Shown here one piece after another: positions 2,105 through 18,448 of a stretch of 42,608 nt of DNA. Both the position numbers and the translations under genes were made by a program. Within the stretch, counting starts at the first letter, position 1; the number at the start of each line of letters is the position of its first letter. A model generated the notes under the pieces. The model did not search any database. It saw only the letters and a list, made by a program, of their open reading frames with translations, and was not told where the DNA came from. Origin of the DNA: Escherichia phage phiKT; the sequence record JN882298. The stretch is one strand, 5' to 3'.

Positions 2105-2923
2105 ATGAACTACCGGGATTCCGATTGGTATTTGGCTATAAAAGACCACCCGGTCGGTACGCGGTTACGGATGGCACACGATGGCTGCTCCACAAGTGAG
2201 GCACTCATCGTTACAAAACAGGATTCCGGGGTAAGCGCGTATTGCTTCCGTTGCAAGTGGAACGGATTCGTTGGCGCGCCTCCTGAATCGTTGGCCCAAA
2301 AGTTAGAGCGTAAATCTCGTGAGAAGCTCGCCAGCAAGGTGATGAAGGACAGTAAGGCGTTACCATTGCCTAAGTGTGAAAACATCGCTGAATGGCCGCT
2401 GGAAGCGCGTATTTGGCTCTATAAAGCTGGACTTAATAACCATGACATATCTGAAGCTGGTATTTATTATCATGGAGGCAGTAATCGTGTGGTCATTCCT
2501 GTATTTGATGGTGACGCGCTGGTGTATTGGCAAGCCCGTGGATTTGACCCTGAAGCGCCTAAGTACCTCAATCCGTCGGTGGTGGACCGGACTGCTCTTG
2601 TCGCCAACTGGTACGGCTCTGAAAGATGCCTTGTTCTTACAGAGGACTGGCTATCAGGCTACCGGGTACATCGGGCCACAGGCTTCCAAGTATATGCCCT
2701 CCTTGGGACAACACTCACGGACGCAATCGCGGCCCAAATCGTCTACAACCGTGTACCAGTGGCCGTATGGCTCGACCCGGATTCGGCGGGCCAGACTGCG
2801 GCGCGGAAGATTATTGCTAAACTCAGTGCGCTGAACCACCCGGTTAAAAACATCGTCACTGAGCGTGACCCTAAACTTTACAGTGACGCAGAAATCCGGG
2901 AGGTGTTAGGTGAGTCTGGATAG
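2105..2923 (+). CDS. DNA primase (zinc-ribbon + TOPRIM-like)
   Basis: N-terminal Cys cluster (C..C..CFRC); TOPRIM-like acidic motifs (LTEDWLSGYRV, VWLDPDSAG); sits immediately upstream of the helicase as in phiKMV-type phages. Confidence 0.8.
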   Translation: MNYRDSDWYLAIKDHPVGTRLRMAHDGCSTSEALIVTKQDSGVSAYCFRCKWNGFVGAPPESLAQKLERKSREKLASKVMKDSKALPLPKCENIAEWPLEARIWLYKAGLNNHDISEAGIYYHGGSNRVVIPVFDGDALVYWQARGFDPEAPKYLNPSVVDRTALVANWYGSERCLVLTEDWLSGYRVHRATGFQVYALLGTTLTDAIAAQIVYNRVPVAVWLDPDSAGQTAARKIIAKLSALNHPVKNIVTERDPKLYSDAEIREVLGESG

Positions 2924-4193
2924 TGAATTTCTCCGTAGTATCCGACATCGCTCTAAGTTCAAAGAGCGCATAGGCACTACGCCGCTGTATCTCTTCGAAG
3001 AGAAAACGAGAGATATTGTTAAGCTAATGAGCCGTTACTTTCGACAGTACAAATCAGCGGAGGTTATAGAGAAAGATGACTTCATCACTTGGATTAATGA
3101 ACTGAAGGGTGAGAAGTTTACGGATGCAGATAAGATTCTCTTTGATGCACTCATGGAAGATTTTGAGTACGACCTGTCCGCCGCCGCCGAGCAATTCCTG
3201 ACGGAGCGGTTGCAGGAGTCCGATTTAGTCTACAAAACCGCCGACCTTATTGAGAAATGGTCGAACGGTGATGAGATTGAAATTATTGAGCAAATGAAAA
3301 TCGTCACCGACAAAGCGGCATTTGGCCGTGCTGACCGGGACGGTATTAAAGTAGTCACAGAGTCGATTGAGGAGATTCTGGAGCACGCCGGGAGCAAGTG
3401 GGGATTCGAGTGGTCATTGCCAATATTAGCTAAGGCCATGCGACCCGCACAGCCGGGAGACATGATTCTCATAGCTGCCCGACCGGACCAAGGGAAGACT
3501 ACATTCATCGGTAACATTGTCCGGCCTTGGCTGGCACAACTGGATGAAATATTTCCCGATGAAGAACGCTGCATTCTCTGGCTCAATAACGAGGGACCGG
3601 GTACTCGTATCAAGCTCCGAAATTACCAATCGGCCCTCGGCCTGACTATCCCAGAAGTGGACCAGATGGCTCATACTCGTGGGATGCTGGACGAGGAATA
3701 CAGGAAGGTGGTAGCCAATGCCGACCGCCTGATTATCCTCGACGTCCACGGCAAGAACACGGCGCAGATTGAACGCAAAATTACGGAATTGAAGCCCGGT
3801 GTTATAGTCTGGGACATGCTGGATAAGGTGAAGTATGTTACAGAGGACGCTTTTAGGAACACTCGCACAGACGAATATCTTGAAGGCTTGTACTCATGGG
3901 TACGCGAATCCGGTGTTATATATGACTGCGTTAACGTCGTATCAACACAGTTATCCGGTGATGCTGAAAATATGCAGTATCCGCACCTAGGAATGCTCAA
4001 GGACTCAAAGACAGGCAAGCAAGGTACGGCTGATGCCATCATTACGTTCGGGTCGGTTGACACTTATCCCCGTACACGATTCATCGGTCTTACTAAAAAT
4101 AAGCTCAATATGGGCCGCGCTACGAGTCGCCTAGGCGAAGTCATATTCGACGGTGCACGTGGCTTAATCACTATGCCAGAGGTAGAGAAATGA
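2910..4193 (+). CDS. DnaB-like replicative DNA helicase
   Basis: Walker A (AARPDQGKTTF) and RecA-fold motifs; GTG start with GGGAGG RBS; overlaps the primase stop. Confidence 0.85.
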   Translation: MSLDSEFLRSIRHRSKFKERIGTTPLYLFEEKTRDIVKLMSRYFRQYKSAEVIEKDDFITWINELKGEKFTDADKILFDALMEDFEYDLSAAAEQFLTERLQESDLVYKTADLIEKWSNGDEIEIIEQMKIVTDKAAFGRADRDGIKVVTESIEEILEHAGSKWGFEWSLPILAKAMRPAQPGDMILIAARPDQGKTTFIGNIVRPWLAQLDEIFPDEERCILWLNNEGPGTRIKLRNYQSALGLTIPEVDQMAHTRGMLDEEYRKVVANADRLIILDVHGKNTAQIERKITELKPGVIVWDMLDKVKYVTEDAFRNTRTDEYLEGLYSWVRESGVIYDCVNVVSTQLSGDAENMQYPHLGMLKDSKTGKQGTADAIITFGSVDTYPRTRFIGLTKNKLNMGRATSRLGEVIFDGARGLITMPEVEK

Positions 4194-4777
4194 TTGATAC
4201 AGTAGTTTTAACGGCATCCGGCCAATACGTGAATATCCTTGCGCCAACCGAGGATGAGATTGACATCCATGATATTGCTCATGCGTTGGCTAATATCAAT
4301 CGGTTCAACGGTCACACCGCTGTACCCTACACGGTAGCAGAGCACTCATTGCGCTGTTCAGCCTTGCTTAAGGCGTGGGGATACACTCCCTCATCTCAGT
4401 TGGCTGGCCTGCTGCATGATGCTACCGAGGCGTATATCGGCGACGTGGCTACCCCACTCAAACAACTGCTGCCAGAGTTCAGAGTCATTGAGAAGAATCT
4501 GGAAAAGGTTATTGAGAAGAAGTTCGACATTATCATTAATGACCGTCCAGAAGTCCATTACGCAGACCTCCAGCTACTGGCATCCGAACGCAAGTACCTG
4601 ATGCCGGAAACGCCTGAGTATGTTTGGGAGATTATCGACGGGATTGACCCGACGACCTACTCCACAGTGACCGGCAACAATCCTAAGTGGGGTGGTCGGA
4701 CGCATAAGGAACTGGTCGGCTGGTTCATTAAACGCTTTGAGCAACTTATCAACGAGGTACACAATGTTAAAAATTGA
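4190..4777 (+). CDS. HD-domain phosphohydrolase (5'-deoxynucleotidase-like)
   Basis: H...HD...D metal-binding pattern (AEHSLRC ... LLHDATEAYIGDV); ATGA overlap with the helicase stop. Confidence 0.7.
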   Translation: MIDTVVLTASGQYVNILAPTEDEIDIHDIAHALANINRFNGHTAVPYTVAEHSLRCSALLKAWGYTPSSQLAGLLHDATEAYIGDVATPLKQLLPEFRVIEKNLEKVIEKKFDIIINDRPEVHYADLQLLASERKYLMPETPEYVWEIIDGIDPTTYSTVTGNNPKWGGRTHKELVGWFIKRFEQLINEVHNVKN

Positions 4778-5057
4778 CCTGACTATCGGCGCATTTAGGA
4801 TAACCTCTGATGAACACAATTACATTCTGCACCAGTGCAAGCCTAAGACCAAGGGTAAGGACGTAGGAACTTTACATTGGGCGGTGGTCGGGTACTACAG
4901 CAGTCTGGAGCACGTCGCTGGTAATATCGCAAAGTGTGCCGCAGACGGCGTTACCGAAGGCTTCCCTATCTACCAACTCGACGACCTGAAGAAAGTAGAA
5001 CGGGCTATCTCAGAGGTAGGCACGGAACTGGTTAAGGCAATACAGGAGAAAATTTAA
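4764..5057 (+). CDS. Hypothetical protein
   Basis: Track ORF 4692..5057; internal ATG at 4764 with GAGGT RBS; TAATG overlap with the DNA polymerase start. Confidence 0.45.
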   Translation: MLKIDLTIGAFRITSDEHNYILHQCKPKTKGKDVGTLHWAVVGYYSSLEHVAGNIAKCAADGVTEGFPIYQLDDLKKVERAISEVGTELVKAIQEKI

Positions 5058-7450
5058 TGTCCTATGTAACGTTCGATTTGGAGACAACGGTCAAATCCTT
5101 GGCTAAACGCAAGGCCAGCCCGTTCCACCCGAACAATTTCATAGTGGCGATTGGTTGGAAACGACAAAACTGCTCTGTTCAGGGTAGTTACAGTAAAACG
5201 GGCGAGCACCATCCCAATTGGTTCGAAGGTCTTTTGGCAGGTACTAAATTACTTGTCGGCCAGAATATCAAATTTGACATTCTCTATGCTATAACCCGGT
5301 CCGAATCGGCATACGCCGCTTGGATGAAATGGGTAGAGGCCGGAGGAAATGTTTGGGATTGCCAGCTTGCCGAGTATTTACTGCGAGGTCAGGAACAATC
5401 AGCCCACATGTTGTCGATGGATGAGATGGTCGAGGAGTACGGCGGGAACACGAAGGTGGATGAAGTCAAAGCCATGTGGGAAGCAGGCTACGATACACCG
5501 GAGATTCCTGAAGACTTGCTGATGCGTTATCTCTGCGGTGAGACAAAGGATGATGGTACTCGCGTGTTCGGCGATATTGAGAACACCGAAGCAATCTTCC
5601 TCGGTCAATTGAAGAAGGCACGTAAGCGCGGCCACCTGAAGTCCATCATGCTTAACATGGGGAGCCTGTTGGCCTCCATAGAGATGGAAAAGAACGGTAT
5701 GGCCGTTGACCTGAAGCTGGGCTTAGAGCAAGCCGAGAAGCTGAAGGAAGCGTGCAACGAACTCCGCGAGAAAATGCAGCAGTACCTGCCAAGCGACCTC
5801 CCTTGCGAGTTTAACTGGGGTTCCGGGCACCACTTATCGGCCCTTATCTTCGGCGGCGCGATTAAGTACAAGCAGAAAGCCGAGATTCTGGATGACGAAG
5901 GCAACAACGTCTACCCGCAGATTAAGGCGGTTGGGTACGAAACAGTGACCGGGGACTTCGTTATACCGGGACACGGTATCTCAGAAGAACGTTTTCAGGA
6001 GATGGTCGAGGCCGGGAACATCGCCACGTACAAGGCTGGGAAGAAGAAGGGCCAATTCCGGTCCAAGCAGGTTAGCATTGATGACCTGTCCCGACCTAAG
6101 ACGAAGATTATGGAGTTCCGGTATAACATGCCGGGGTTCACGGAGCCGGACCCGAAGTGGGAGACGAAGCACGAAGGCGTTTATGCCACGAACGCAGACG
6201 TCATTGAGGAACTGGGAACGCGTGATGTACCGTTCCTGAAAGACCTCACCAAGCTCAACAAAATGGATAAAGACCTGACGACATACTATATCTGCGAAGA
6301 CCCTAAGAAAGAAGGTATGTTCAAAGGTATGTTGACGCTGGTCGGCGATGACGGCATTATCCACGGCAGTATTAACCACACCTCCACAGTGACCGGGCGA
6401 TTCTCTGCGAGCAACCCTAACCTCCAGAACATCCCCCGTGCGGACACTTCTGAAGTTAAGAAGCTGTTCATCTCGCGCTTCGGCGACGACGGCCAGATTA
6501 TTCAGTCTGACTTCTCGTCTCTGGAGATTTACGTTCAGGCATTACTCACAGGTGACAAGCAACTGCTGGCAGACCTGAAGAAAGGTCTGGACATGCACTG
6601 CGTTCGCGTCGCCAGTAAATTCGGGGTGTCTTATGAGGAAGCAGTCAAACGTTGTAAGAAGGATGTTAACGCGCCGGACTACAAGCTATGGAAGTCTCGC
6701 AGGACTGGATGTAAGGAATTTTCATTCCAACGAGCATACGGCGCTGGAGCGGCAGCAGTGGCGAACTCTACGGGGATGTCTATTGAAGACGTGCAGGACC
6801 TTATCAAGTTAGAGGACGAACGTTACCCGGAGATTGAACCATTCTATGCAAGAGTTACAGCAGCAATTAACGAAAGCCGAGTACCAACAAGTCTGTATGT
6901 ACATCATCCAGAGATACGGGGACTGTCTGTCTGCATCGGCAAAGGATTTTATAGAACGCCTGATGGGAAGAAATACACTTACCGAGAGTACCCTGCTCCG
7001 GCTGGTTTTATCAAACGCGGGGGTGCACACGCCTCCTTCTCGCCTCCTGAAATTAAGAACTACATTGTGCAGGGTACAGGTGGCGAGTGGGCGAAAGCTG
7101 CAATGTGGCTTGCAGTCCGCACATTCTATCGCTTCAACAACTTCGGAGGAAAGGCGCTCTTAGTCAACGTAGTCCACGATGCGGTGTATGTAGATGGCCA
7201 CAACGATGTACTCGTAGAGGCATGTGCGGCGCTGGAGGCATGTATGTTTGGTGCTAACGAACTCATGGAGTACCGCTTTGACTGGCAGGTAGATGCGCCA
7301 GTGCCTGCGGAAACAACATTCGGGGTAGCTATGTATTACGAGACTGGCGCGGATACCTTAGACGGCTTTAAGGACAAGGTTAAAGAGATGCGTATGTTAA
7401 ACAGAGAGTTATATTTAGGAGGCTATACCCCGTCATGGGAGAATGTATAG
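5057..7450 (+). CDS. DNA polymerase, family A, with 3'-5' exonuclease domain
   Basis: 797 aa; N-terminal exonuclease motif (FDLETT); Pol I-like palm/fingers signatures; conserved position in T7-like replication module. Confidence 0.9.
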   Translation: MSYVTFDLETTVKSLAKRKASPFHPNNFIVAIGWKRQNCSVQGSYSKTGEHHPNWFEGLLAGTKLLVGQNIKFDILYAITRSESAYAAWMKWVEAGGNVWDCQLAEYLLRGQEQSAHMLSMDEMVEEYGGNTKVDEVKAMWEAGYDTPEIPEDLLMRYLCGETKDDGTRVFGDIENTEAIFLGQLKKARKRGHLKSIMLNMGSLLASIEMEKNGMAVDLKLGLEQAEKLKEACNELREKMQQYLPSDLPCEFNWGSGHHLSALIFGGAIKYKQKAEILDDEGNNVYPQIKAVGYETVTGDFVIPGHGISEERFQEMVEAGNIATYKAGKKKGQFRSKQVSIDDLSRPKTKIMEFRYNMPGFTEPDPKWETKHEGVYATNADVIEELGTRDVPFLKDLTKLNKMDKDLTTYYICEDPKKEGMFKGMLTLVGDDGIIHGSINHTSTVTGRFSASNPNLQNIPRADTSEVKKLFISRFGDDGQIIQSDFSSLEIYVQALLTGDKQLLADLKKGLDMHCVRVASKFGVSYEEAVKRCKKDVNAPDYKLWKSRRTGCKEFSFQRAYGAGAAAVANSTGMSIEDVQDLIKLEDERYPEIEPFYARVTAAINESRVPTSLYVHHPEIRGLSVCIGKGFYRTPDGKKYTYREYPAPAGFIKRGGAHASFSPPEIKNYIVQGTGGEWAKAAMWLAVRTFYRFNNFGGKALLVNVVHDAVYVDGHNDVLVEACAALEACMFGANELMEYRFDWQVDAPVPAETTFGVAMYYETGADTLDGFKDKVKEMRMLNRELYLGGYTPSWENV

Positions 7451-7821
7451 AGCACACACAAGTGGGTGACCTGTTCGGATATGCAAACACCCGGCGCGGA
7501 GGACGTCCCATGAAGATGCACCGCGCCGTGTTCCTTGATGTGCATGGGTATCTGCCAGAAGTTGTCAGACATACGTGTGACAACCCGCGCTGTATAAATC
7601 CTGAACATCTGCTTGCAGGTACGCAGAAGGATAATATGAGGGACTGTGTTGAGCGCGGTCGGAGAACACCTCCACCGAGACACAACAAGCTATCACAGGA
7701 ACAAGTATTAGAAATACGACGTGGAACCACGCCAGCGAAAGACCTCGCCGAACGCTTCGGTGTGTCTAAAGTAACCATTTACAATGTACGCAAGTTAAAA
7801 AGAGGGTATTACCATGGCTAA
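7435..7821 (+). CDS. HNH endonuclease (homing-endonuclease-like)
   Basis: HNH motif region (HRAVFLDVHGYLP ... HTCDNPRCINPEHLLAGTQKDNMRD); overlaps the 3' end of the polymerase gene; alternative start at 7510 with GGAGG RBS. Confidence 0.75.
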   Translation: MGECIEHTQVGDLFGYANTRRGGRPMKMHRAVFLDVHGYLPEVVRHTCDNPRCINPEHLLAGTQKDNMRDCVERGRRTPPPRHNKLSQEQVLEIRRGTTPAKDLAERFGVSKVTIYNVRKLKRGYYHG

Positions 7822-8752
7822 GCAATTTTCAGTTTTGAAGAAGAAAGAACTGCTCGTAGACCAGACCAAAGCAAGCACTGGTGGTGACTATACGCCACCA
7901 GCGGAAGGTCTGGCCCGTGCCCGACTCGTCGCCTACGTCGAGGTCGGCAAGCACGAGAAGGTCAGTAAGCAATACGGCACCAAGGTCCAGAGCATGGTGC
8001 ATCTGACCTTCGAACTGTCCGGTCCGAAGTGGGAGCCGAAGAAGCTGGATGATGGTACTCTGATTCCGCAGCGTATCACCCTGAAAGAGAACCTGTCCAC
8101 TAACACCAAGGCGCGATTCTACAAGCTGTTCCTGAAGCTCCGCGATGGTCGTGAGGACATTACTCACTTCGCCGAAATGCTGGGTGAAGCCTGCCTCATC
8201 CGTATCAAGCACCGTGAGTACGAGGTGGATGCTGGCGGCAAGAAAGAGAAGCGCGTTGCGGTCGATGTGTACTCTCCAGACAGTGGCTGGTCAATCACCC
8301 CGCCGTACATCCTGAAAGATATTATGGATGAGAACGACGAACCGACTGGCGAGCAAGAGAAGAAGCACGTCACCGTCTCCGACCCGGTTAGTGACCTCCG
8401 CCTGTTCATCTGGGATTGCGCGGACAAAGAGCAATGGGACAGCCTGTACATCGAACCGGGTGACGGCGACCGCAGCAAGAACGTGTTCCAAGAACTGATT
8501 GTCAACGCGAAGAACTTTATCGGTTCCCCGGCTGAAGCAGCGGCACACGGCTCTGAATCTCTGGAGGCCATTCTGAAGGGTGGTAAGGGTGCCAGTGAGT
8601 CTGCCACTGACGATGATGATGATGACGGCTCAGAAGGCGCTGTAGAGGATAAGAGCAGCAAGAAAGCTACCTCTGTTGTGAAGAAGGTCGTTAAGAAGAC
8701 GGTAGAGGCTGAAAAGCCTGCTGACGAAGATGACTTAGGGGATATTGACTAA
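7814..8752 (+). CDS. Hypothetical protein with strongly acidic C-terminal tail (possible ssDNA-binding/recombination protein)
   Basis: 312 aa; C-terminus DDDDDDGSEG ... ADEDDLGDID resembles the acidic tails of phage SSB-type proteins; functional call is tentative. Confidence 0.5.
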   Translation: MAKQFSVLKKKELLVDQTKASTGGDYTPPAEGLARARLVAYVEVGKHEKVSKQYGTKVQSMVHLTFELSGPKWEPKKLDDGTLIPQRITLKENLSTNTKARFYKLFLKLRDGREDITHFAEMLGEACLIRIKHREYEVDAGGKKEKRVAVDVYSPDSGWSITPPYILKDIMDENDEPTGEQEKKHVTVSDPVSDLRLFIWDCADKEQWDSLYIEPGDGDRSKNVFQELIVNAKNFIGSPAEAAAHGSESLEAILKGGKGASESATDDDDDDGSEGAVEDKSSKKATSVVKKVVKKTVEAEKPADEDDLGDID

Positions 8753-9722
8753 CATGACAAAGTTCAAGCTGCCTAAAGACCTTGGTTCGATGGTGCAGCC
8801 TGAACCTGTTAGCATTGTTCCTGAAATGGTTAAGGGTCGCCGCTGCCACATCGACGGCGACTACTTAGCCTACTTCGCCGCTGGCGGTGAGAATATGCCT
8901 GTGAGCATATGCCGCCAAGTGGTTCGGGAACGCGCCGAGAAGTTCCGGGTGATGACAGGTTCGGAAAGCATTCTACTGCAACTATCCGATAACCGATGCA
9001 CGAAAGGCGACCGGGTGTTCATTAGTACCACCCAACCATACCAAGGCCAACGCCTGTCCGGCAAGAAGCCGGGTAACTGGCAGGCAACCCGCGAGTATAT
9101 CGACTCTGGTGCTCATGGCATTCCAATGAAGGTTTGGAAAACGCGAGAGGCCGATGACGGAGCGGCATACTGTGCCGAGACGCAGAGCGGAGGCTTAGAT
9201 GCCATTTGTACTAAAGATAAAGATTGGCGTATGTTTGCTGGCCTGCACTGTATCTGGGATACTTTCCAATTGGTGCAAGTCAACCCCGGAGACTTTCGCG
9301 TCGATGGTCCTGCTCCTGTTAAGGATAAAAACGGCAAGACCCCACTTCAAAAGTATTATGGTCATTTCTTCTTCTGGCAGCAGATGCTATACGGAGACAC
9401 GGCAGACCACATCCCCGGTATACACGGGATTGGCGAGGCCACTGCCGCCCAACTTCTGCTTGACTGTACTAATAACGCCGAAGCATTCGATGTTGTCGCT
9501 GATATTTACAGGAAAAAGAAACGGGAGGAGTGGTCTGATTATATGGTTGAGCAGGCTGCGCTTCTATGGATGCGAACTGACCGACACGCAGACCTGCTGG
9601 ATTTCCTCAAGATATTCCCGGAAGATGAGGAAATTATCATTGCTGCGGAGAAGATGAGGCAGCGTGTTCTCGAAGATAAGGCTACCTTAGAGAGCATACT
9701 CAAAGGTTACTCACATAAATAG
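8745..9722 (+). CDS. 5'-3' exonuclease (FEN/T7 gene 6-like)
   Basis: PIN/FEN-type acidic motifs (HIDGDYLAY ...); position after the polymerase as in T7-like phages. Confidence 0.8.
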   Translation: MTNMTKFKLPKDLGSMVQPEPVSIVPEMVKGRRCHIDGDYLAYFAAGGENMPVSICRQVVRERAEKFRVMTGSESILLQLSDNRCTKGDRVFISTTQPYQGQRLSGKKPGNWQATREYIDSGAHGIPMKVWKTREADDGAAYCAETQSGGLDAICTKDKDWRMFAGLHCIWDTFQLVQVNPGDFRVDGPAPVKDKNGKTPLQKYYGHFFFWQQMLYGDTADHIPGIHGIGEATAAQLLLDCTNNAEAFDVVADIYRKKKREEWSDYMVEQAALLWMRTDRHADLLDFLKIFPEDEEIIIAAEKMRQRVLEDKATLESILKGYSHK

Positions 9723-9732
9723 AGGGTATTCA

Positions 9733-10215
9733 GTGATGATGAAATTAACCCAATCCCTAATCCCTGTAGTAAGACGCAAGATGGCAGCAGAGCAAGGGAA
9801 CCGATGTCTTTTGTGCGAAGAGATTATGGAAGATAAGCAAATGGTTCTGGACCACGACCATGATACAGGCCACTGTCGCGGGGTTCTCCACAGAGGCTGT
9901 AATGCCATGCTCGGACATCTGGAAAACAACCGTGCCCGTCACCTGCTGAAAGACGACGACAAGTTCGCTACGTTCCTCGGGAACATCATGGCGTATATCA
10001 CCATGGACTGCTCGCACCAGCCACTGCACAGCACTCATAAGAACGCTGCGGAGAAGAAAGCCGCAGCATATGAGAAGTCCCGGAAGAAACTGGTAGCCTC
10101 CCGGATTGCCTCCAACCCAACCGCCGCCGACGCTATCAAAGCGAAGGAAAAGGCACTGCGTAAAGTACGTGCTGACCGTAACCGTCCTACTGTTAAAGGA
10201 ACAAATGATGCCTAA
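9733..10215 (+). CDS. Endonuclease VII-like Holliday junction resolvase
   Basis: Motif C-L-L-C ... DHDHDTGHCRGVLHRGCNAMLG matches the zinc-binding/HNH-like core of T4 endonuclease VII. Confidence 0.75.
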   Translation: MMMKLTQSLIPVVRRKMAAEQGNRCLLCEEIMEDKQMVLDHDHDTGHCRGVLHRGCNAMLGHLENNRARHLLKDDDKFATFLGNIMAYITMDCSHQPLHSTHKNAAEKKAAAYEKSRKKLVASRIASNPTAADAIKAKEKALRKVRADRNRPTVKGTNDA

Positions 10216-11182
10216 AACTAGCCTGATTGCACTATTCACCAAGGAACAACACCAATCAATCCTCGGTAAGCATCTGGATAACACTGCTGCTGCCAAGGCA
10301 TACAACGAACTGCTGGGCTGGAATAGCCCGGTGGTCTACCGCCAAGTTGTAGCGTACTGGCGCAAGATTTACATCGACCATGGTGGTAAGAAAGGCGAGG
10401 CTATTCGTGAAGAGAAACAAGCTGTTAAGCTGGTTCAGCCATCACCAAGTGACGATATTGGTAACACTGACGTCCCTGACGTGTGTCGCCGTATCCTTGT
10501 GGTTGGTGATTTACATGCTCCTTATACTCATCCCGACGCTATTGCTTTCCTTCGCCATGTCCGAGACAGTTATGTTCCTGACATGGTTGTTCAGGTAGGT
10601 GATGAGACGGACGGCCACGCAATCAGCTTCCACGACTCGGACCCGAATCTGGATAGCGCCGGGGTCGAATTAGAGAAAGCCAAACTTGTACTGGAGAAAC
10701 TACATGACTTGTTCCCTAACCTTCTCGTTTGCGATTCCAATCACGGAAGTCTGGTGTATCGCCGCGCTAAAGCTCACGGTCTTCCAGTACAGTTCATCAA
10801 GAAATACCGCGATATACTGTTCCCGGAGCACGGTGCTAAGAAGTGGAGTTGGGCGGATGCTTGGGTTCTTAATACCCCACTCGGCCCTGTACGGTTCCAG
10901 CATCAGGTATCTGGTGACTTCATGCTCAACGCAAGCCACGAACGAACGTCTCTCGTTCTGGGTCACGAACATGGTCGCTTTGAAGTGCAATACGCAGCTT
11001 CTTCCTCTGCGCTGTATTTCGGGGCTTATGCCGGGTGTCTGATTGACCGTAAGTCTCTGGCCTTTGCCTACGGTAAGTTGCACCGCAAGAAACCAATCCT
11101 CGGCGTGATGGTAATCACCGATGGTTGTCCGCAGTTAATCCCTATGCTGATGAACGAAGAAGGTCGTTGGGTCGGTCGCTAA
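10205..11182 (+). CDS. Calcineurin-like metallophosphoesterase
   Basis: Track ORF 10106..11182; ATG at 10205 with AAAGGAA RBS; motifs GDLHAPY, GDETDGH, DSNHG, GHEHG. Confidence 0.7.
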   Translation: MMPKTSLIALFTKEQHQSILGKHLDNTAAAKAYNELLGWNSPVVYRQVVAYWRKIYIDHGGKKGEAIREEKQAVKLVQPSPSDDIGNTDVPDVCRRILVVGDLHAPYTHPDAIAFLRHVRDSYVPDMVVQVGDETDGHAISFHDSDPNLDSAGVELEKAKLVLEKLHDLFPNLLVCDSNHGSLVYRRAKAHGLPVQFIKKYRDILFPEHGAKKWSWADAWVLNTPLGPVRFQHQVSGDFMLNASHERTSLVLGHEHGRFEVQYAASSSALYFGAYAGCLIDRKSLAFAYGKLHRKKPILGVMVITDGCPQLIPMLMNEEGRWVGR

Positions 11183-11222
11183 TTATACCGGGCAGGGATG
11201 CCCATTCAATTGAGGATAAGAT

Positions 11223-11942
11223 ATGTTAGTAATGCTCTCTGGCGCGATTGGCGCTGGCAAAGATACCTTCGGTGAGTTCCTGTACGACTCATTTGACAAG
11301 TTCGGCTACAACGTGGAAGTGGTGAAGTTTGCCGACCCCATTCGTGAAGCTGCATTTAAGCTCGGATTCAATCCAGATGACCGGGCAACCAAGGAAGTAC
11401 CTGCAATACGCCATTATAAACTCTCAGAACTTGATGAGGCCATTTTTACTACTCATACCTGCCTGACACCTTACGAGCGCCGAATGGTCGCTGTACGAGT
11501 TCACCAGAGATTAATTAACATCCGTAAGGAAAAGCACGATGGCATTTATAAACCTGTCGTCAGTACGCGGGAGTTTATGCAGGTGGTTGGCGGCACTGTC
11601 CGAGATGCAGATGTGGATTACTATATCAAACACATGTTATCCAATGTACCCGTTGGGCGAATTAACATCTGCACTGACTCTCGGTTCCTTAACGAGCAAA
11701 AAATCGGGGATTATTCAATCTACGTTGAGCGTCCAAACAACCCGCTGGCGGTTAATACTCTCGACGCCTCGGAAGCAGCACAAGCATCGCTCCGAGGGGC
11801 GGCGAAGAAAGTAATCCTGAACAACAGCACTCTGGATAATCTGGCAGAAATGGCAGACTATGTGGCTACAACACTAATTTCAAAAGGGTATTGTGATGAT
11901 GCAGTTAAAGAGTCAAGCGGAACTGGAATCCTTATCGAGTGA
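11223..11942 (+). CDS. P-loop kinase (dNMP/nucleotide kinase-like)
   Basis: Walker A (GAIGAGKDT) at the N-terminus; 239 aa; 3' end overlaps the RNAP start. Confidence 0.55.
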   Translation: MLVMLSGAIGAGKDTFGEFLYDSFDKFGYNVEVVKFADPIREAAFKLGFNPDDRATKEVPAIRHYKLSELDEAIFTTHTCLTPYERRMVAVRVHQRLINIRKEKHDGIYKPVVSTREFMQVVGGTVRDADVDYYIKHMLSNVPVGRINICTDSRFLNEQKIGDYSIYVERPNNPLAVNTLDASEAAQASLRGAAKKVILNNSTLDNLAEMADYVATTLISKGYCDDAVKESSGTGILIE

Positions 11943-14367
11943 ACGCGGCCTTGCCAAGCTGATGGCCGAGTGTGAGCAGGCTGAATCAGCGGGGCGTGCA
12001 TCCGGCGCGTTTTATGCCAAGCAGTTGTTAGAGCGTTTTGTTAACCGTATGGCCGAACGTATTGACCACGAGATGGCGAATCCGGGTGCTGGCCGCGCGA
12101 AAGCGCATAAGAAACTGGTCGCTGTGTTTGACTCAAAAGTCACTGCGTTTATTTCTGTATCAACCACATTGAATATGCTGATGGTCAACGAGCAGACACC
12201 GGGCACCAGCCTTAGTCGCGCCCTCGGCAATGCAATGTACAACGAACTGTTCTGCACCACGTTCGACGATGCCAACCCGGACCTGTTCCACACCATCTGC
12301 AAGGACTTGGATAAGCGCCAGAGCAAATCCAGCCGCCACCGCATGACTGTGCTGAAGAATCAGGCAGCGAAGAAGGGTATCGCGTGGGAGAACTGGACCG
12401 TCACCGAAATCCTTCAGGTTGGTGAGTGGTGTCTGGATAATCTGGTGTCAGTTGGCCTGTGCGAAACGCATACCGAGGTGTCTCGCGGTAAGGCGAAGAT
12501 GTACGTGGAACTGTCCGACGAGGCGCTGGGAATGATTGAGGATACCAAACGTCTGGTGTCCTTCTTCCGGCCCCAGCGCCTCCCGTTCGTAGAGAAGCCT
12601 CTGGACTGGACCGGGATTGTTGGTGGTGGCTACCATACTGCTCGTATGCAGAGTACGATGCCTCGTTGCATCAAAGCCAGCCCGACCCAGATGGATGTAC
12701 TCATAAAGCATCGTGACGACTACAAGGGTACGGTGGTGGCGTGCATTAACACTCTGCAATCGGTAGAGTGGCGTATCAACAAGCGTATTCTGGAAGTGCA
12801 GCAGCAGATGTTCCGTGGCTTTGAGCCGAAGAACAAGCCGGATGCGCTGGAGTGTCATAGCAAGGACGTTGAGGATTGGACAGAGGCAGATAAATCTCTA
12901 CACAGCCACTGGAAGAAGGAAATGGCTCGCTGGTACACAGAGCAGCGTGCAGAGCGTTATGCCGCTTCACGACATGCCTACACGTTGTCAGTGGCACGAG
13001 AGTTCGCTGACTACCCGCGTATCTGGTTCATGTACTTCGCTGACTGGCGGGGCCGTTACTACCCGGCCACCACAGGCATCTCGCCGCAGGGGACCGACAT
13101 CTCTAAATCCATGCTGGAGTTCGCCAATGGCAAGCCCATCTCTGACCCAATCGCAGAACAGTTCTTCTTCCTCCTTGGTTCAACTAAATTCGGATTCGAC
13201 AAAGGCTCTATATCCGAACGAGTTCAGTGGGTTCACGAGAATCACGAACTTATCATGGCGTGTGCCGACGAACCGCTACTTCATACTGATTTCTGGTACA
13301 GAGAGGCAGATAAGAAGACCCGTTACCAATTTCTGGCATGGTGTTTTGAATATGCTGAATACAAACGGTTCCCGGCTGGATTTGTATCACGACTTCCGGT
13401 ATCTCTTGATGGCACATGTAACGGCCTACAACACTATTCGGCGATGTTACGAGATTCGGTTGGTGCTAAAGCTACCAACTTGTTACCTGCTAACCGACCA
13501 AACGATATTTACGCGCAAGTCGCAGGCGTTGTCACCAACCTTCTTGAAAGCATGTCACCTGCTGACTTCCCGGCACTGACACGCGAATCTAAGCCTCTCA
13601 GCATCTATGAGGTGGATTTTTTCAGGAGGGGGTGGTTACACCACGGCATTAGCCGTAGCCTCGTTAAACGGTGCGTTATGACGTTACCTTACGGGTCCAA
13701 GAAGTTCAGCATGGGTCGCTTCATTAAGGGCGATTACATGCTGGATATTCACCCGGAAGAGTTCGACACCGACGACTACACCGACGCGGCGAACTTCCTT
13801 GGCGATATAGTCTGGAAGGCTATCGGGATGGTGGTAGAGAAGGCGGTCGGCGGCATGAGCTACTTTCAAGGCACCAGCCGAGCAATTACCCGCAAGAAAG
13901 ACGTTGAGGTCATCCAGTGGCCGAGCATGACCGGACTTCCAATTGTTCAGGATTATTGGAAGACAGAGTACGTACAGTTCCGCTCAGTACGTGGTGGTGG
14001 TGCTCGACTGAAGTGTCTGGTCGAAACGGACAAGATTGACAAGCTGGGACATGCCAACGGAATCGCACCCAACATTGTTCACAGTCTGGATGCAGCGCAC
14101 TTAACGTTCGTTACGCTGGCCGCAGCAAAGGCTGGCATTGACTCCTTCGCAATGATTCACGACGACTACGGAACCCACGCAGCCGACACAGCACTCCTGT
14201 TCAAGCTCATCCGTGAAGAGTTCGTCAAGATGTACGAGCAAGACCCTTTCACAATGATTGCTGAAGCTCTTGAAGCACAAGCAATATCCAAGTATGTTCC
14301 TGCCAGACCAGAGTTCGGCGACCTCGACTTACAGCAGGTCAATCACTCCGAATACTTCTTCCTGTAG
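11896..14367 (+). CDS. Single-subunit DNA-directed RNA polymerase (T7-like)
   Basis: Motifs DGTCNGLQHYSAM and HDDYGTH match T7 RNAP active-site motifs A/C; ~820 aa; followed by a terminator and a phage-promoter-like motif. Confidence 0.9.
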   Translation: MMQLKSQAELESLSSERGLAKLMAECEQAESAGRASGAFYAKQLLERFVNRMAERIDHEMANPGAGRAKAHKKLVAVFDSKVTAFISVSTTLNMLMVNEQTPGTSLSRALGNAMYNELFCTTFDDANPDLFHTICKDLDKRQSKSSRHRMTVLKNQAAKKGIAWENWTVTEILQVGEWCLDNLVSVGLCETHTEVSRGKAKMYVELSDEALGMIEDTKRLVSFFRPQRLPFVEKPLDWTGIVGGGYHTARMQSTMPRCIKASPTQMDVLIKHRDDYKGTVVACINTLQSVEWRINKRILEVQQQMFRGFEPKNKPDALECHSKDVEDWTEADKSLHSHWKKEMARWYTEQRAERYAASRHAYTLSVAREFADYPRIWFMYFADWRGRYYPATTGISPQGTDISKSMLEFANGKPISDPIAEQFFFLLGSTKFGFDKGSISERVQWVHENHELIMACADEPLLHTDFWYREADKKTRYQFLAWCFEYAEYKRFPAGFVSRLPVSLDGTCNGLQHYSAMLRDSVGAKATNLLPANRPNDIYAQVAGVVTNLLESMSPADFPALTRESKPLSIYEVDFFRRGWLHHGISRSLVKRCVMTLPYGSKKFSMGRFIKGDYMLDIHPEEFDTDDYTDAANFLGDIVWKAIGMVVEKAVGGMSYFQGTSRAITRKKDVEVIQWPSMTGLPIVQDYWKTEYVQFRSVRGGGARLKCLVETDKIDKLGHANGIAPNIVHSLDAAHLTFVTLAAAKAGIDSFAMIHDDYGTHAADTALLFKLIREEFVKMYEQDPFTMIAEALEAQAISKYVPARPEFGDLDLQQVNHSEYFFL

Positions 14368-14401
14368 TACCTCGGCCAAGGATGGCTACCCTCCCCCCTA
14401 T

Positions 14402-14420
14402 TTCGTCACCTACAATAGCA
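14402..14420. repeat. Exact 19-nt sequence ttcgtcacctacaatagca, copy 1 (intergenic, after RNAP)
   Basis: Identical 19-mer at 19222..19240 inside the scaffolding gene. Confidence 0.7.
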
Positions 14421-14453
14421 CACAATACCCTCAAACTGTTCGTTTTGAACACT

Positions 14454-14493
14454 AGCCTTGGCCTCTTTGGTCAGGGCTATTTTTTCTGTTTTT
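14454..14493 (+). terminator. Rho-independent terminator downstream of the RNAP gene
   Basis: ~10-bp stem (agccttggcc/ggtcagggct, one G-U and one mismatch) followed by a T-run (attttttctgttttt). Confidence 0.55.
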
Positions 14494-14533
14494 GGGTATT
14501 CGTTAAATATGGCTTGAAGCCTTGATATATGGG

Positions 14534-14560
14534 GTTTCCGCACATTATTTTAATAAGGGG
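14534..14560 (+). promoter_or_regulatory. Phage RNAP promoter-like motif, copy 1
   Basis: gtttccgcacattattttaataagggg; near-identical copy at 38018..38044; ends in a TATA-AGGG(AG) element like T7-type promoters. Confidence 0.5.
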
Positions 14561-14576
14561 TCTGGAGGGTGTTAAA

Positions 14577-14924
14577 ATGTTCCTTAAATTTTTACTTTGG
14601 TTAATTTCTAAGTTAAGCGAAAGCCAACTTAGTAAGGTAAGAGATTATTACCTGATTAGTGGTCCATACCGTAGTGAATTAGAAAGACTACATTCCCGGA
14701 TTAGTGAGTTAGAGGGTGCTCTTTCCTCCTCAGAGTCTGTACCAGAACCTGTTACAGAAATATTCAGTAGAATGAACTATGAGGTGTACGAATACTTTGA
14801 GCGTACAGTAAGTAATACTTCTGTAGCTAGTTCTACTACTGATTTAGAAGCTGGGTTTAAATTAGGTGTCCAGCATGTTCTCGCCAAGTTGAGGAATGGG
14901 TATGTCACACCGCGAAGTCTCTGA
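14577..14924 (+). CDS. Hypothetical protein, AT-rich accessory gene (N-terminal hydrophobic segment)
   Basis: Track ORF 14529..14924; ATG at 14577 with GGAGGGTG RBS; by eye much lower GC and different codon choice (tta, agt, aga) than neighbours. Confidence 0.5.
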   Translation: MFLKFLLWLISKLSESQLSKVRDYYLISGPYRSELERLHSRISELEGALSSSESVPEPVTEIFSRMNYEVYEYFERTVSNTSVASSTTDLEAGFKLGVQHVLAKLRNGYVTPRSL

Positions 14925-15330
14925 TTCTGATTGGGTAGCTAGTGTTCCTAAGTTGGTTGAGGCTATTTGCAACTCACCTAGCAGGATGATATGTGATATT
15001 GACGTAGAGGCTACTCTGGCCCATTTTATGGCCGTAGCCACTCGTGGCGGTGCGTATATTGTCAAGGAGAAGTATCTGGTCGTATTCGACCGCTACAAGC
15101 TCTGGTACGCACCTACCAAGGATATTATCGAAGAGAAGATTGTCCTGTGTATTTATCCAGAAAATCCCGGCTCAATGTTCGATGTTGTCCGATTTCTAAT
15201 TGAACAACGTGATTACCTTGAAGCGAATCACTTGGTCATAGGTGACTTCCTGCACACTAATCAGGAAAAGTATGGTCGAGTCCTAACTAAATTAGGGTTG
15301 ACCAAAATCAACTCAGTTTACGCATGTTAG
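14902..15330 (+). CDS. Hypothetical protein, second gene of the AT-rich accessory pair
   Basis: ATG at 14902 with GAGGAA RBS; 142 aa; no motif recognised. Confidence 0.5.
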   Translation: MSHREVSDSDWVASVPKLVEAICNSPSRMICDIDVEATLAHFMAVATRGGAYIVKEKYLVVFDRYKLWYAPTKDIIEEKIVLCIYPENPGSMFDVVRFLIEQRDYLEANHLVIGDFLHTNQEKYGRVLTKLGLTKINSVYAC

Positions 15331-15340
15331 GAGGTTCCCA

Positions 15341-15943
15341 ATGGGAGGCTTACTCGGAGGGGGCGATAACGGGAAGGCTCAAGCAAAAGCGACCCGTGAA
15401 GCTGCCGAACGTCAGGCACAGGCAACATTGCAGGCCGCACGGGAGCAGATAGCGGCTCAGAACCGTCAGGCGGCTGCACAGAATCAATGGTCCAGTCAGC
15501 AGGCCGCGCAACAGCGTGAGTTTGAGGCCCAGCTAAATAAGACCAATCAAGAATACCAATCAACCCTACAAGCACAACAGCTTGCTCAGCAGAAAGCACT
15601 CACTGAACAGACTAACGCCATTAACAAGGCGTATCAGGACAAGATGGCTAGTCTGCAACAGCAGGCCAACGAACAACAGCAGTTTGAGTACACCCAGCAG
15701 CTTCTACAGTCCGCCGCAGACGCACAGCGCCAGCAGGCACTGAAGGATGCGCAGGATGCTACTTGGATGCCGCAGGAACAGGTCGAGGTTACTCTGGCCC
15801 CGGATAGCTCCACATATCTGGACGAGCAACGTCGTAGACGTCCCGTGAGCAACCTATACAACGGTGCTGGTAACGTGAACACGGCTTCGGCGGATACATC
15901 GTCTGCAAGTGGCACAGGGCTTTCTAGTGGCTTGAGGATTTAA
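15341..15943 (+). CDS. Gln/Ala-rich putative virion protein
   Basis: Strong RBS (TAGGAGG); low-complexity Q/A-rich coiled-coil-like protein upstream of the portal. Confidence 0.5.
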   Translation: MGGLLGGGDNGKAQAKATREAAERQAQATLQAAREQIAAQNRQAAAQNQWSSQQAAQQREFEAQLNKTNQEYQSTLQAQQLAQQKALTEQTNAINKAYQDKMASLQQQANEQQQFEYTQQLLQSAADAQRQQALKDAQDATWMPQEQVEVTLAPDSSTYLDEQRRRRPVSNLYNGAGNVNTASADTSSASGTGLSSGLRI

Positions 15944-15944
15944 T

Positions 15945-16883
15945 ATGACCGATGATGAAGCTCGCCAACTTGCTCAATGGGGCGAGGATGAGATTGCCCG
16001 AATACTGGGCCTGAACAGAAACTCATATTTGTCGGCACAGGGACAGTCGGTGGCTGACTGGTCCAGCCGCTGGTCCTCCGGCCTGCAAGATATTGTGGGT
16101 TACTATGACCAAGGTAAGGCCAACTCCCTGTACGCATCACTTGGTGGAACTACATCGGATACATACCTCAAACAGTTGTCGATGCTGGCAGAGGAATCCA
16201 ACAAGCTCTACACCATGATTAATAACCCCAATGCAGTGCATTCCAAGCTCCGGGCAGAGGCCGGGAAGCAGGGCGGTGTAGCGCAGTTCTCTATCGGTAT
16301 GGGTTATCGTACTGAGGGCAACGGCGGTTACGTTTACGACCTGATGGGCAACAGATACAACGATATAACGATGAGTCTGCTGTACAAATCCCTGTATAGC
16401 ATGGTTGATAGCTTCAGCAATCAACAAGGTAAAATCGTTAACGAGTTGAATGCACAGCAGGGTCGTGAGCAGAACTATATCAGTCAGATTAGTGGTTTAT
16501 TGCAGCAGGGTACATTAGCAAAGACCAAGGCTGAGCAGGAAGCGCAGAAGAAGGCGCTTGAGCAGCAATATGCACAGCAACAGGCAGAACTGAACAAGCA
16601 GGCTGAAGAGAATGCACGTATCCTCAAGGAGAAGCAGGAAGCTCAGACCAAGATGTTCAACGAGTCCGCTAAGGTTACGGCGGAATCCAACGCAGCGACA
16701 TCCCAGCTTCAACAGGCCAAATCTGCTGCCACTCAGGTAGCCAGTGTAGGTACATCTCGCGGTGGTGAGGCAATATCCTCAACCAACGCAGCCGCTAAAT
16801 CAAAGACCAGACAAACCACGCGTACTGAACGCTGGCAGTCAACCCGCTCCCCAGCCGCTGGCGGTGGCGGCATCAACGTTTAA
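15945..16883 (+). CDS. Putative virion protein (coiled-coil C-terminal half)
   Basis: 312 aa; sits between the Q-rich protein and the portal; by my reading of the printed sequence the ATG falls at 15946, so the 5' coordinate may be off by 1. Confidence 0.5.
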   Translation: MTDDEARQLAQWGEDEIARILGLNRNSYLSAQGQSVADWSSRWSSGLQDIVGYYDQGKANSLYASLGGTTSDTYLKQLSMLAEESNKLYTMINNPNAVHSKLRAEAGKQGGVAQFSIGMGYRTEGNGGYVYDLMGNRYNDITMSLLYKSLYSMVDSFSNQQGKIVNELNAQQGREQNYISQISGLLQQGTLAKTKAEQEAQKKALEQQYAQQQAELNKQAEENARILKEKQEAQTKMFNESAKVTAESNAATSQLQQAKSAATQVASVGTSRGGEAISSTNAAAKSKTRQTTRTERWQSTRSPAAGGGGINV

Positions 16884-16894
16884 CAGGAGCTATC

Positions 16895-18448
16895 ATGACC
16901 AACGCAGACAACGCTGTACAATCAACCGTTACAGCGCCGTCTCGCTGGACTGAACTTGACGGGCAGAGACGTAGCCTAGTGCGTCGGTGGGAGTCATATT
17001 CCATCTACACCATCCCCTACATCTGCCCTGATGAGAACTACCAGCAGGACACGGATGAAATGACCCACGACTTCCAAGCAGTGGGCGCACAAGCCGTGAA
17101 CAGTCTCGCCAACAAAATCATGTTAGCTCTGTTCGCACCCTCCAGACCATTCTTCAAACTCGACCCTGATGATGACACCAAGGAAGAGTTGATGAAGGTT
17201 GGTATCGACCCAGACGCATTGAAAGATGTGTTCTCATCCTTGGAACTTCAGAGCGCAAAGCTGCTGGATACCAAGAATTTCCGCCCGGTAATGTTCGAAA
17301 TCATCAAGTCACTCATCGTCACTGGCAATAGCCTGATGGACTTGGGTAACGAAGTGGCCTATGTCCGGGTACGTGATTTCGTAGTGAAGCGCGACTATTA
17401 CGGTCGTCCCTGCGAAATCATGATTAAGACCTGCCTCAAGTTTGAGCAGTTGACCATCGACGTTCAGGAATCCTGCAAGCAGAAGAAGCCGCATGGATAC
17501 ACCCCGGACACGAAAGTGGACGTTTACCGTTGGTACAAAGTGGATGAGACGGGTAAACGTATTAAGATGACTTACTGGATAGATGACCTCTCTCTGGAAG
17601 ATGGCAAGTATCAAGGGGATTGGAAGAGGGAAGATTGTCCCGTCCGCCCACTGACTTGGTGTCTTACTGCGAATGCCGACTACGGAACTGGTCTGGTAGA
17701 GGAATACGCTGGCGACTTCGCCGCGCTATCCACGATGTCAACCTCTTTCGTGCAGGGTAGTGTTCTCGCTTCCGAGTTCCGCTGGCTCTCCAACCCGGCT
17801 GGTATGACCCAACCGGAAGATGTCCGCGACTCAAATAACGGTGCAGTAATTCCCGGCGTCGAAGGCGACCTGTCACTCATCTCTGCTGGTCAGGGTATGG
17901 GGCAGACTCTCCAGATGATGATGAACGGTATGGACATTTACACCCGACGTATCAGTCAAGGATTCTTGATGCTGTCCGGTGTTACCCGCGATGCAGAACG
18001 TGTGACCGCCGAAGAGATTCGGATGCAGGCCAACGAACTGGAAAACTCACTGGGTGGAGCGTATAGCCGACTGGCTATCGACATGCAGCTTCCAATTGCC
18101 AACTGGCTTCTGGATATGCAAGACCTGTCCATCAAAGGCGTCAAGATGAACGTATCCATCGTGACTGGCCTCAACGCACTATCCCGTAACGGCGACCTTG
18201 ATAATCTCAACGCTGCCGTAGGCAATATCACCGCAATGTACCAGATGCCCCCGTTGGCTATGCGACTGCTCAAAATGGATGCAGTCATCTCCGACATCAT
18301 GGCAGGCCACGGCCTGTTGGCAGCCCGGTACGTCAAAACTCAAGCTGAAGTTGCTCAAGAAGAACAGCAGGCTCAACAGCAGGCTCTTGCTCAACAAGGC
18401 GCGGCAAACGTGGTAGACCAAGCCACGATGCCTCAACAACCAATGTGA
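16895..18448 (+). CDS. Portal (head-tail connector) protein
   Basis: 517 aa; position immediately upstream of scaffold and capsid; size and order as T7 gp8. Confidence 0.8.
   Translation: MTNADNAVQSTVTAPSRWTELDGQRRSLVRRWESYSIYTIPYICPDENYQQDTDEMTHDFQAVGAQAVNSLANKIMLALFAPSRPFFKLDPDDDTKEELMKVGIDPDALKDVFSSLELQSAKLLDTKNFRPVMFEIIKSLIVTGNSLMDLGNEVAYVRVRDFVVKRDYYGRPCEIMIKTCLKFEQLTIDVQESCKQKKPHGYTPDTKVDVYRWYKVDETGKRIKMTYWIDDLSLEDGKYQGDWKREDCPVRPLTWCLTANADYGTGLVEEYAGDFAALSTMSTSFVQGSVLASEFRWLSNPAGMTQPEDVRDSNNGAVIPGVEGDLSLISAGQGMGQTLQMMMNGMDIYTRRISQGFLMLSGVTRDAERVTAEEIRMQANELENSLGGAYSRLAIDMQLPIANWLLDMQDLSIKGVKMNVSIVTGLNALSRNGDLDNLNAAVGNITAMYQMPPLAMRLLKMDAVISDIMAGHGLLAARYVKTQAEVAQEEQQAQQQALAQQGAANVVDQATMPQQPM

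Follow-up and report, generated by a model that had tools for sequence, protein, structure and literature searches.

The stretch of DNA considered here (the window, 42,608 nucleotides) is the complete genome of Escherichia phage phiKT, a member of the genus Ermolevavirus in the Autographiviridae whose genes all lie on the + strand. Three of these genes are the subject of this analysis, and encode an HD-domain protein, a calcineurin-like metallophosphoesterase (MPE) with an N-terminal extension, and a P-loop kinase. An earlier note, made from the letters of the sequence, had described three open reading frames of these kinds. All three are present on the + strand exactly where it placed them (Table 1), each with a Shine-Dalgarno-like sequence upstream that offers a plausible ribosome-binding site, and its calls of an HD-domain phosphohydrolase, an MPE with an extra N-terminus of about 100 residues and a P-loop kinase are borne out by the family matches given below. 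Positions 4000-12000 are 92.9% identical to Escherichia phage PGT2, also an Ermolevavirus of the Autographiviridae, whose GenBank and RefSeq records carry the names 'deoxyribonucleoside 5'-monophosphate phosphatase', 'metallo-phosphoesterase' and 'dNMP kinase', and the phiKT MPE reading frame is 100% identical to 'hypothetical protein phiKT_00010'. Since the sequence and the annotations of the three genes are already public, the observation is correct and ordinary, not new. Nor do the HD, MPE and kinase genes form one locus or unit: 5.4 kb separate the HD gene from the pair downstream, and in cultured Autographiviridae it is confined to phiKT and PGT2 (tblastn). The proposal that the trio remodels deoxynucleoside triphosphate (dNTP) pools from within the replication module holds for the HD enzyme and the kinase.

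The MPE matches PF00149 with 23.3 bits (cutoff 21.5) over its first motifs only, and phrog_221 with an E-value of 3e-107. A HMMER library search with the protein returned 1,610 representatives, many of which are stand-alone proteins of about 235 aa matching residues 95-325 or so. Because so many homologues consist of the catalytic domain by itself, the N-terminal extension of about 94 aa is a genuine addition. In an alignment of 104 sequences, each of the motifs D102xH104, G132-D133xxD136, (S)N179-H180, H233 and G253-H254xH256 is either invariant or conserved to 90% or more; all five motifs of the calcineurin-like superfamily are thereby kept, and the binuclear active site is predicted to be intact. 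Other stretches are specific to the family, namely HAxSFHDSDPNLDSAG, SNHGSLxYRR and GCLID. Searches of the PDB by sequence and by profile gave no informative match to any solved structure. The AlphaFold model is confident (pLDDT 93.8) and contains the beta-sandwich MPE fold, with nucleases and phosphodiesterases as its nearest solved folds (PolD DP1, YfcE, MJ0936, SbcD/Mre11) and PPP enzymes ranking below them. The PPP signature GDxHG / GDxVDRG / GNHE is absent from the protein, which has GDLHA, GDETDGH and SNHG. As modelled, the fold favours a nuclease or phosphodiesterase, although a fold cannot fix the substrate.

The first 60 residues of MPE are modelled as a small helical bundle (helices at residues 13-22, 26-37 and 46-58). 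In the linker that follows, the motif QPSPTDDIGxTxVP (residues 78-91, positions 10436-10477) is nearly invariant, and lies partly in a lower-confidence part of the model; it might serve as a docking peptide, in autoinhibition or in the binding of a partner. In a multiple alignment, the N-terminal region of MPE falls opposite canonical helix-turn-helix (HTH) domains at the N-termini of distant homologues. Among these homologues are P0149, with HTH_psq at 39.9 bits (cutoff 20.4), P0157, with HTH_23 at 33.7 bits (cutoff 24.6), and P0170, in which HTH_psq and HTH_3 are each barely over cutoff. Because the aligned homologues carry a canonical HTH at this place, we infer that the N-terminal domain of MPE is probably HTH-like and binds DNA or another nucleic acid. 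The nuclease and phosphodiesterase fold neighbours, together with the HTH domains of the relatives, therefore point to nucleic acid, and not to small signaling molecules, as the probable target of the enzyme.

The position of MPE within the phiKT proteome was assessed by whole-genome tblastn of the phiKT proteins against AltoGao (Slopekvirinae), phiR8-01 (Melnykvirinae) and VEc3 (Molineuxvirinae). It is by far the most conserved phiKT protein across Autographiviridae subfamilies, being 79-80% identical to its homologues in AltoGao and phiR8-01, while the next best protein, the large terminase, reaches 39-51%, and the capsid (24-45%), the DNA polymerase (31-32%) and the RNA polymerase (28-32%) stay lower still. 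Between subfamilies, identity amounts to 89-95% in the catalytic core and to 54-58% in the N-terminal region. By the Nei-Gojobori method, nonsynonymous divergence (dN) comes to 0.16-0.19 over the whole gene and to 0.07-0.09 within the core, with a ratio to the synonymous divergence (dN/dS) of about 0.05-0.11. Whole-gene synonymous differences (pS) are near saturation between subfamilies, at 0.66-0.85; the conservation of MPE is therefore mainly due to long-term purifying selection and not to very recent transfer, and recent horizontal transfer as its sole cause is unsupported between subfamilies.

Some exchange of alleles is suggested in addition by two observations. Against some Klebsiella phages, pS in the core is only 0.48-0.59. 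Between phiKT and PGT2 (MPE gene at 11843-12832 of that genome), the synonymous divergence of MPE is 0.56 for the whole gene and 0.63-0.86 for the core, above the 0.22 of the DNA polymerase gene (PGT2 7056-9449), which hints at the replacement of an MPE allele by recombination.

LAGLIDADG inteins, recognized by an N-terminal Cys, a TxxH block, the LAGLIDADG domain and a C-terminal GN followed by Cys or Ser, interrupt MPE homologues exactly at three catalytic motifs. One is inserted at motif I, after DLH (P0208), four within the GDExD of motif II (P0138, P0136, P0189 and P0268), and one at motif V, after GHxH (P0231). Inteins typically occupy the most conserved sites of important proteins of replication, repair and nucleotide metabolism. 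Together with the low dN/dS, their position at catalytic motifs indicates that MPE is important and strongly constrained.

The family to which MPE belongs is essentially phage-borne. By tblastn, the gene is found in 641 phage records, almost all from Autographiviridae and with SP6/K1-5-like phages among them, and in a set of 185,579 species genomes relatives occur at only 10 loci, mostly on phage-like contigs of metagenome-assembled genomes, with one beside an integrase in Bdellovibrio. The order exonuclease, endonuclease VII, MPE and nucleotide kinase is shared by Ermolevavirus, Pienvirus phiR8-01 and Vectrevirus VEc3, and in VEc3 a DNA ligase follows this block. Adjacency of MPE and kinase is also seen in Friunavirus, and in Drulisvirus the MPE gene comes just after the DNA polymerase gene. 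The kinase slot next to MPE is occupied by a gp1-like protein (phrog_139) in phiKT and phiR8-01, and by a non-homologous DUF3310, T7 gp1.7-like nucleotide kinase in VEc3. That non-orthologous kinases occupy one position suggests a demand for a nucleotide kinase there.

The kinase of phiKT has the P-loop GAIGAGKDT and matches the deoxynucleoside monophosphate (dNMP) kinase family phrog_139 with an E-value of 2e-28. Alone, it scores 20.1 bits against PF21448 (DNMK), under the cutoff of 27.1, and PF21448 is carried by 7 of its 12 homologues according to precomputed annotation. These 12 are all that was found at E <= 1e-3 among 5.8 billion clustered proteins, the exact phiKT sequence not being among those listed, so that the clade is very small. 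With the family profile, the best solved match is the dNMP kinase gp1 of T4 (1dek, E 1.7e-7), over two stretches, one at the P-loop and one comprising the SxRxxMQxLG, DxR and SE motifs. Residues G7, G10, G12, K13, D14, T15, S114, R116, D152 and R154 are invariant in the family. Its nearest relatives in cultured phages are 'dNMP kinases' of Friunavirus, at 26-31% identity, several of them annotated beside a phosphoesterase. By these motifs and matches, the protein is classified as a divergent dNMP kinase of the T4 gp1 type.

The start codon of the HD gene overlaps the stop codon of the helicase gene as ATGA, and its ribosome-binding site is GAGG. The product matches the YfbR-like family PF12917 with 31.8 bits (cutoff 25.9) and phrog_318, a dNMP phosphatase family, with an E-value of 4.8e-67, and its best solved relative is Atu1052 (2gz4, E 6.6e-14). 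In the alignment with YfbR from Escherichia coli (2paq), HDATEAYIGDVATPLK stands opposite HDASEVLTGDLPTPVK. Within this HMMER alignment, which covers residues 51-117 only, H76-D77 and D85 are in register with metal ligands of YfbR. E80, three residues after the HD pair, corresponds to the catalytic E72 of YfbR, a column in which the chain of the E72A mutant (2par) shows Ala. The likely remaining ligands are H52 and D126, assigned by eye beyond the aligned stretch. Against the NCBIfam equivalog PRK03826 the protein scores 18.3 bits, far under the cutoff of 122, and is therefore a YfbR-like enzyme and not an orthologue of YfbR. Its best-supported activity, judged from these similarities, would be the conversion of dNMPs to deoxynucleosides and phosphate.

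At high identity, the HD gene is found only in PGT2 (tblastn, phage genomes). All other phage matches are below 60% identity, and those listed share 32-46% over most of the protein and come from unrelated, mostly temperate or large phages. A dATP-triphosphohydrolase family of the PHROG collection gives a weak partial match to the protein (41 residues, E 1e-4). An identity as a DatZ-like dATPase of the kind associated with Z-genomes was rejected on this short match, with no PurZ-like gene recognized.

Table 1. Genes and domains in the DNA-metabolism region of the phiKT genome
Feature	Position	Strand	Family match or remark
Primase	2105-2923	+	DNA-metabolism block
Helicase	2910-4193	+	DNA-metabolism block
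YfbR-like HD-domain 5'-deoxynucleotidase (predicted), 195 aa	4190..4777	+	PF12917, phrog_318
Small replication protein	about 4764-5057	+	
Family-A DNA polymerase	5057-7450	+	
HNH endonuclease	7435-7821	+	
phrog_862 protein	7814-8752	+	
5'-3' exonuclease	8745-9722	+	PF01367 E 3.6e-8, 34.2 bits (cutoff 40, not reached); named an exonuclease in PGT2
Endonuclease VII	9733-10215	+	PF02945 E 3.1e-15; directly upstream of MPE, 11-nt overlap
MPE, 325 aa	10205-11182	+	PF00149, phrog_221
MPE N-terminal domain (aa 1-60, helical bundle) and conserved linker (aa 61-94)	10205..10486	+	
MPE catalytic core (binuclear, calcineurin-like, aa 95-325)	10487..11182	+	
T4 gp1-type deoxynucleoside monophosphate kinase (predicted), divergent, 239 aa	11223..11942	+	phrog_139
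T7-type RNA polymerase	11893-14367	+	

Homing endonuclease genes recur in this region. The HNH protein of phiKT is a homing endonuclease with a C-terminal HTH, encoded between the genes for the DNA polymerase and the phrog_862 protein; PGT2 has no HNH gene at this site and carries one between primase and helicase instead. In PGT2, an open reading frame for an HNH/endoVII-like homing endonuclease (gp26) is inserted between the MPE and kinase genes, where phiKT has none, and in several Klebsiella phages homing endonuclease genes adjoin the MPE gene. The AltoGao gene 30 product (Klebsiella phage AltoGao gp30, 17749-18243), annotated in this Drulisvirus as 'polynucleotide kinase', holds a HAD_PNKP 3'-phosphatase domain only, without a kinase domain.

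Differences from PGT2 are also seen elsewhere in the genome. The RNA polymerase of PGT2 (14066-16036) is annotated as a 656-aa 'N4-like RNA polymerase', whereas the phiKT enzyme is an 824-aa protein of the T7 type; its tblastn match in PGT2 ends at residue 632, and the PGT2 gene may be interrupted or mis-called. In the early region, the phiKT gene at 39756-40250 matches the S-adenosylmethionine (SAM) lyase family (PF23780, E 2e-24), of the T3 SAMase type of anti-restriction protein. Its apparent counterpart in PGT2, gp05, chosen by position in the early region only and unaligned, is labelled 'SAM-dependent methyltransferase' in RefSeq.

Given the gene identities, catalytic residues, fold and synteny established in this analysis, and the extreme purifying selection acting on MPE, we infer the likely substrates, a role of MPE directed at DNA, and a division of labor among the three enzymes, as follows. 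The favored explanation, held with moderate confidence, is that the trio represents enzymes of the DNA and nucleotide economy of a lytic phage of the T7 supergroup, concerned with host-DNA breakdown and the handling of dNMPs, and not one dedicated system. MPE would be a metal-dependent phosphodiesterase, most likely acting on DNA, either in the breakdown of the host chromosome or in the processing of DNA ends or oligonucleotides. The small helical domain at its N-terminus, which probably binds DNA, would hold the enzyme on the substrate. MPE may act together with the 5'-3' exonuclease and the endonuclease VII encoded next to it, in a manner similar to that of the A1 protein in phage T5. The T4 gp1-like kinase would turn the released dNMPs into deoxynucleoside diphosphates, from which the nucleoside diphosphate kinase of the host would make dNTPs for phage replication. 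The HD enzyme, accessory in the genus of phiKT and PGT2, would convert some dNMPs to nucleosides and thereby trim or balance the pool, like Dmp of T5.

Several points weigh against this explanation. An exonuclease and an endonuclease are encoded by phiKT in any case, and the need for a further nuclease is not evident; no MPE gene was found annotated in T7-group phages. Unless timing or specificity differs between them, a dNMP phosphatase would seem to work against a dNMP kinase in the same phage. The adjacency of MPE and kinase genes is weak evidence for their coupling, because gene order in such small genomes is largely inherited. The parallel with T5 is affected as well, since the HD protein has no significant BLASTP alignment with Dmp (E 4), and Dmp has no Pfam match, hence no HD domain by Pfam; on both counts, Dmp was rejected as a homologue. 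Homology between MPE and T5 A1 is secure at the superfamily level only: an hhalign comparison with the A1 family gives a probability of 7.7% at full length and of 57% for the core. In the literature, no characterization of the phrog_221-type MPE family was found, and no biochemistry.

The earlier note had also raised an involvement in anti-defense, that is, the destruction by at least one of the three enzymes of immune signaling nucleotides, such as cyclic oligonucleotides or derivatives of cyclic ADP-ribose, or the countering of systems that deplete dNTPs. An invariant small molecule as substrate would agree with how strongly the MPE core is conserved, and signals of the dNMP type do exist. 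The PUA-Cal-HAD system is set off by methylated dAMP (m6-dAMP), which is released as the phage causes the chromosome to be broken down (bioRxiv 10.64898/2026.01.15.699771); in principle, a signal of this kind could be removed by a 5'-deoxynucleotidase, a counter-measure not mentioned in that paper. Against this, the HD protein, with its catalytic Glu, falls in the YfbR group: a Pfam scan returned the YfbR-like and a generic HD model and no HD-GYP, SpoT-type or SAMHD1/Dgt-type family, and its dATP-triphosphohydrolase match, at 1e-4 over 41 residues, compares with 4.8e-67 for the dNMP phosphatase family. The best fold matches of MPE are nucleases and its relatives carry HTH domains, while a PADLOC scan of the trio yielded no meaningful match, only a generic P-loop. 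Known signal-degrading enzymes of phages use other folds, such as the 2H phosphoesterase of Acb1, the metallo-beta-lactamase of Apyc1 and the DUF1874 of AcrIII-1, which differ from HD, MPE and P-loop proteins. MPE is moreover encoded in the DNA-metabolism block and not among early anti-defense genes such as that for the SAM lyase. As for dNTP depletion, a dNMP phosphatase removes nucleotides, lowering and not raising the supply of dNTP precursors, and therefore cannot restore a depleted dNTP pool. No support was found for either proposal, and both are considered quite unlikely.

Other roles can be imagined for MPE itself. It might heal ends, acting as a 2',3'-cyclic phosphodiesterase or 3'-phosphatase like the MPE module of bacterial Pnkp and repairing, with kinase and ligase, tRNA or DNA cut by host nucleases. 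A DNA ligase is indeed encoded nearby in related phages (within the block in VEc3, upstream of the DNA polymerase gene in phiR8-01), Drulisviruses carry their HAD_PNKP 3'-phosphatase domain protein in the corresponding module, and MPE is always near a kinase. However, no ligase or polynucleotide kinase was recognized in the phiKT genome, the phiKT kinase matches the T4 gp1 dNMP kinase and not Pnkp, and the neighboring kinase of SP6-like phages is of the T7 gp1.7-like type, which makes this role unlikely. Still less probable is a place in the replisome as a DP1-like accessory exonuclease, that is, a proofreading or primer-removal subunit working with the phage DNA polymerase. The Drulisvirus gene order would suit such a subunit, and replisome proteins are typical hosts of inteins, but Exo I (FDLET) and Exo II (NIKFD) motifs are still present in the family-A polymerase of phiKT itself, weakening the case for a proofreader acting in trans, and a separate 5'-3' exonuclease is encoded by the phage. 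That MPE reprograms host proteins as a Ser/Thr or Tyr protein phosphatase is hardly credible: the name 'protein phosphatase 2A-like' on the record of one phage homologue (H107) speaks for it, and is opposed by the lack of PPP signature motifs, by the low rank of PPP enzymes among the fold matches, and by HTH fusions in relatives, which fit DNA better than protein substrates.

The favored explanation, a role in DNA and nucleotide economy, also admits a bolder and improbable version. There, the Autographiviridae MPE would be an HTH-tethered, T5-A1-like nuclease destroying the host chromosome in most non-T7 members of the family, and the phiKT HD enzyme would remove dNMP by-products, including m6-dAMP, in a pathway that degrades, erases and recycles, hiding the phage from immunity that senses dNMPs. 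An A1-like nuclease role would explain why MPE is the slowest-evolving protein and a repeated target of inteins. Being far more conserved than the polymerases, the capsid and the terminase, and colonized by inteins, MPE is the sole element of the trio that merits experiments. More than 600 sequenced Autographiviridae carry a member of its family, phrog_221, among them many therapeutic phages of Klebsiella and E. coli. Should MPE prove to be a host-DNA-destroying nuclease, the counterpart of A1, it would fill a gap in the understanding of host takeover by KP34-like and SP6-like phages, and would also be a conserved marker or target.

Among known systems, the metallophosphoesterase Gp48 of cluster A mycobacteriophages has phosphodiesterase activity and disrupts host genomic DNA (PMC12287305). 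It belongs to a different phage group, and no N-terminal extension is described for it, whereas phiKT MPE has one. In the tblastn search of phage genomes with phiKT MPE, neither the ten most frequent organism groups nor the 50 records listed included a mycobacteriophage, no direct comparison with Gp48 being included. Mre11/SbcD, the archaeal PolD subunit DP1, YfcE and MJ0936 have the same fold and binuclear metal site as is predicted for MPE. Unlike Mre11/SbcD, MPE has no capping or OB domains and ends with its catalytic core, and no gene for a Rad50/SbcC partner was recognized in the phiKT genome.

For the other two enzymes, the comparison is with YfbR and with T4 gp1. YfbR (2paq) and Atu1052 (2gz4) have in common with the HD protein the signature HDxxExxxGDxxTPxK and the catalytic Glu, although overall identity to YfbR is low (E 0.016) and Atu1052, the closest solved relative, is uncharacterized. 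T4 gp1 (1dek, PF21448) and the phiKT kinase are of similar length and share a P-loop ending in GKDT as well as the AxPI, SxRxxMQxLG, DxR and SE motifs. gp1 acts on hydroxymethyl-dCMP (hmdCMP), dGMP and dTMP, and the phiKT kinase is very divergent from it.

Phage T5 offers the closest parallel in function. For the degradation of host DNA, T5 needs A1, a pre-early protein predicted to be a metallophosphatase, and A1 by itself suffices for it; A1 is reported to resemble nucleases of double-strand-break repair and proofreading subunits of polymerases. Dmp, a dNMP phosphatase, enhances virulence (bioRxiv 10.64898/2026.04.02.716235). Several differences separate the two phages. A1 is a 556-aa protein whose N-terminal region spans about 290 aa, and it works with A2, whereas MPE has 325 aa; A1 and Dmp are pre-early or early proteins, whereas the phiKT genes lie in the middle DNA-metabolism block; and T5 discards host nucleotides, which phages of the T7 type reuse. 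A Foldseek search of the BFVD with MPE did not return T5 A1 by name among its top 50 matches. When the catalytic core alone is compared by hhalign with 120 relatives of A1, the probability is 57% with a pairwise E-value of 1e-4, and at a permissive threshold the two cores align from end to end over 204 columns with all motifs in register, which is suggestive of a specific homology between MPE and A1. Both also have the unusual SNH in motif III, and several relatives of A1, like distant relatives of MPE, carry N-terminal HTH Pfam domains. T5 also encodes a dNMP kinase. With metallophosphatase, dNMP phosphatase and dNMP kinase thus brought together in one virulent coliphage, as is predicted for phiKT, the set of A1, Dmp and kinase appears to be the closest functional analogue of the phiKT trio, which may work like it.

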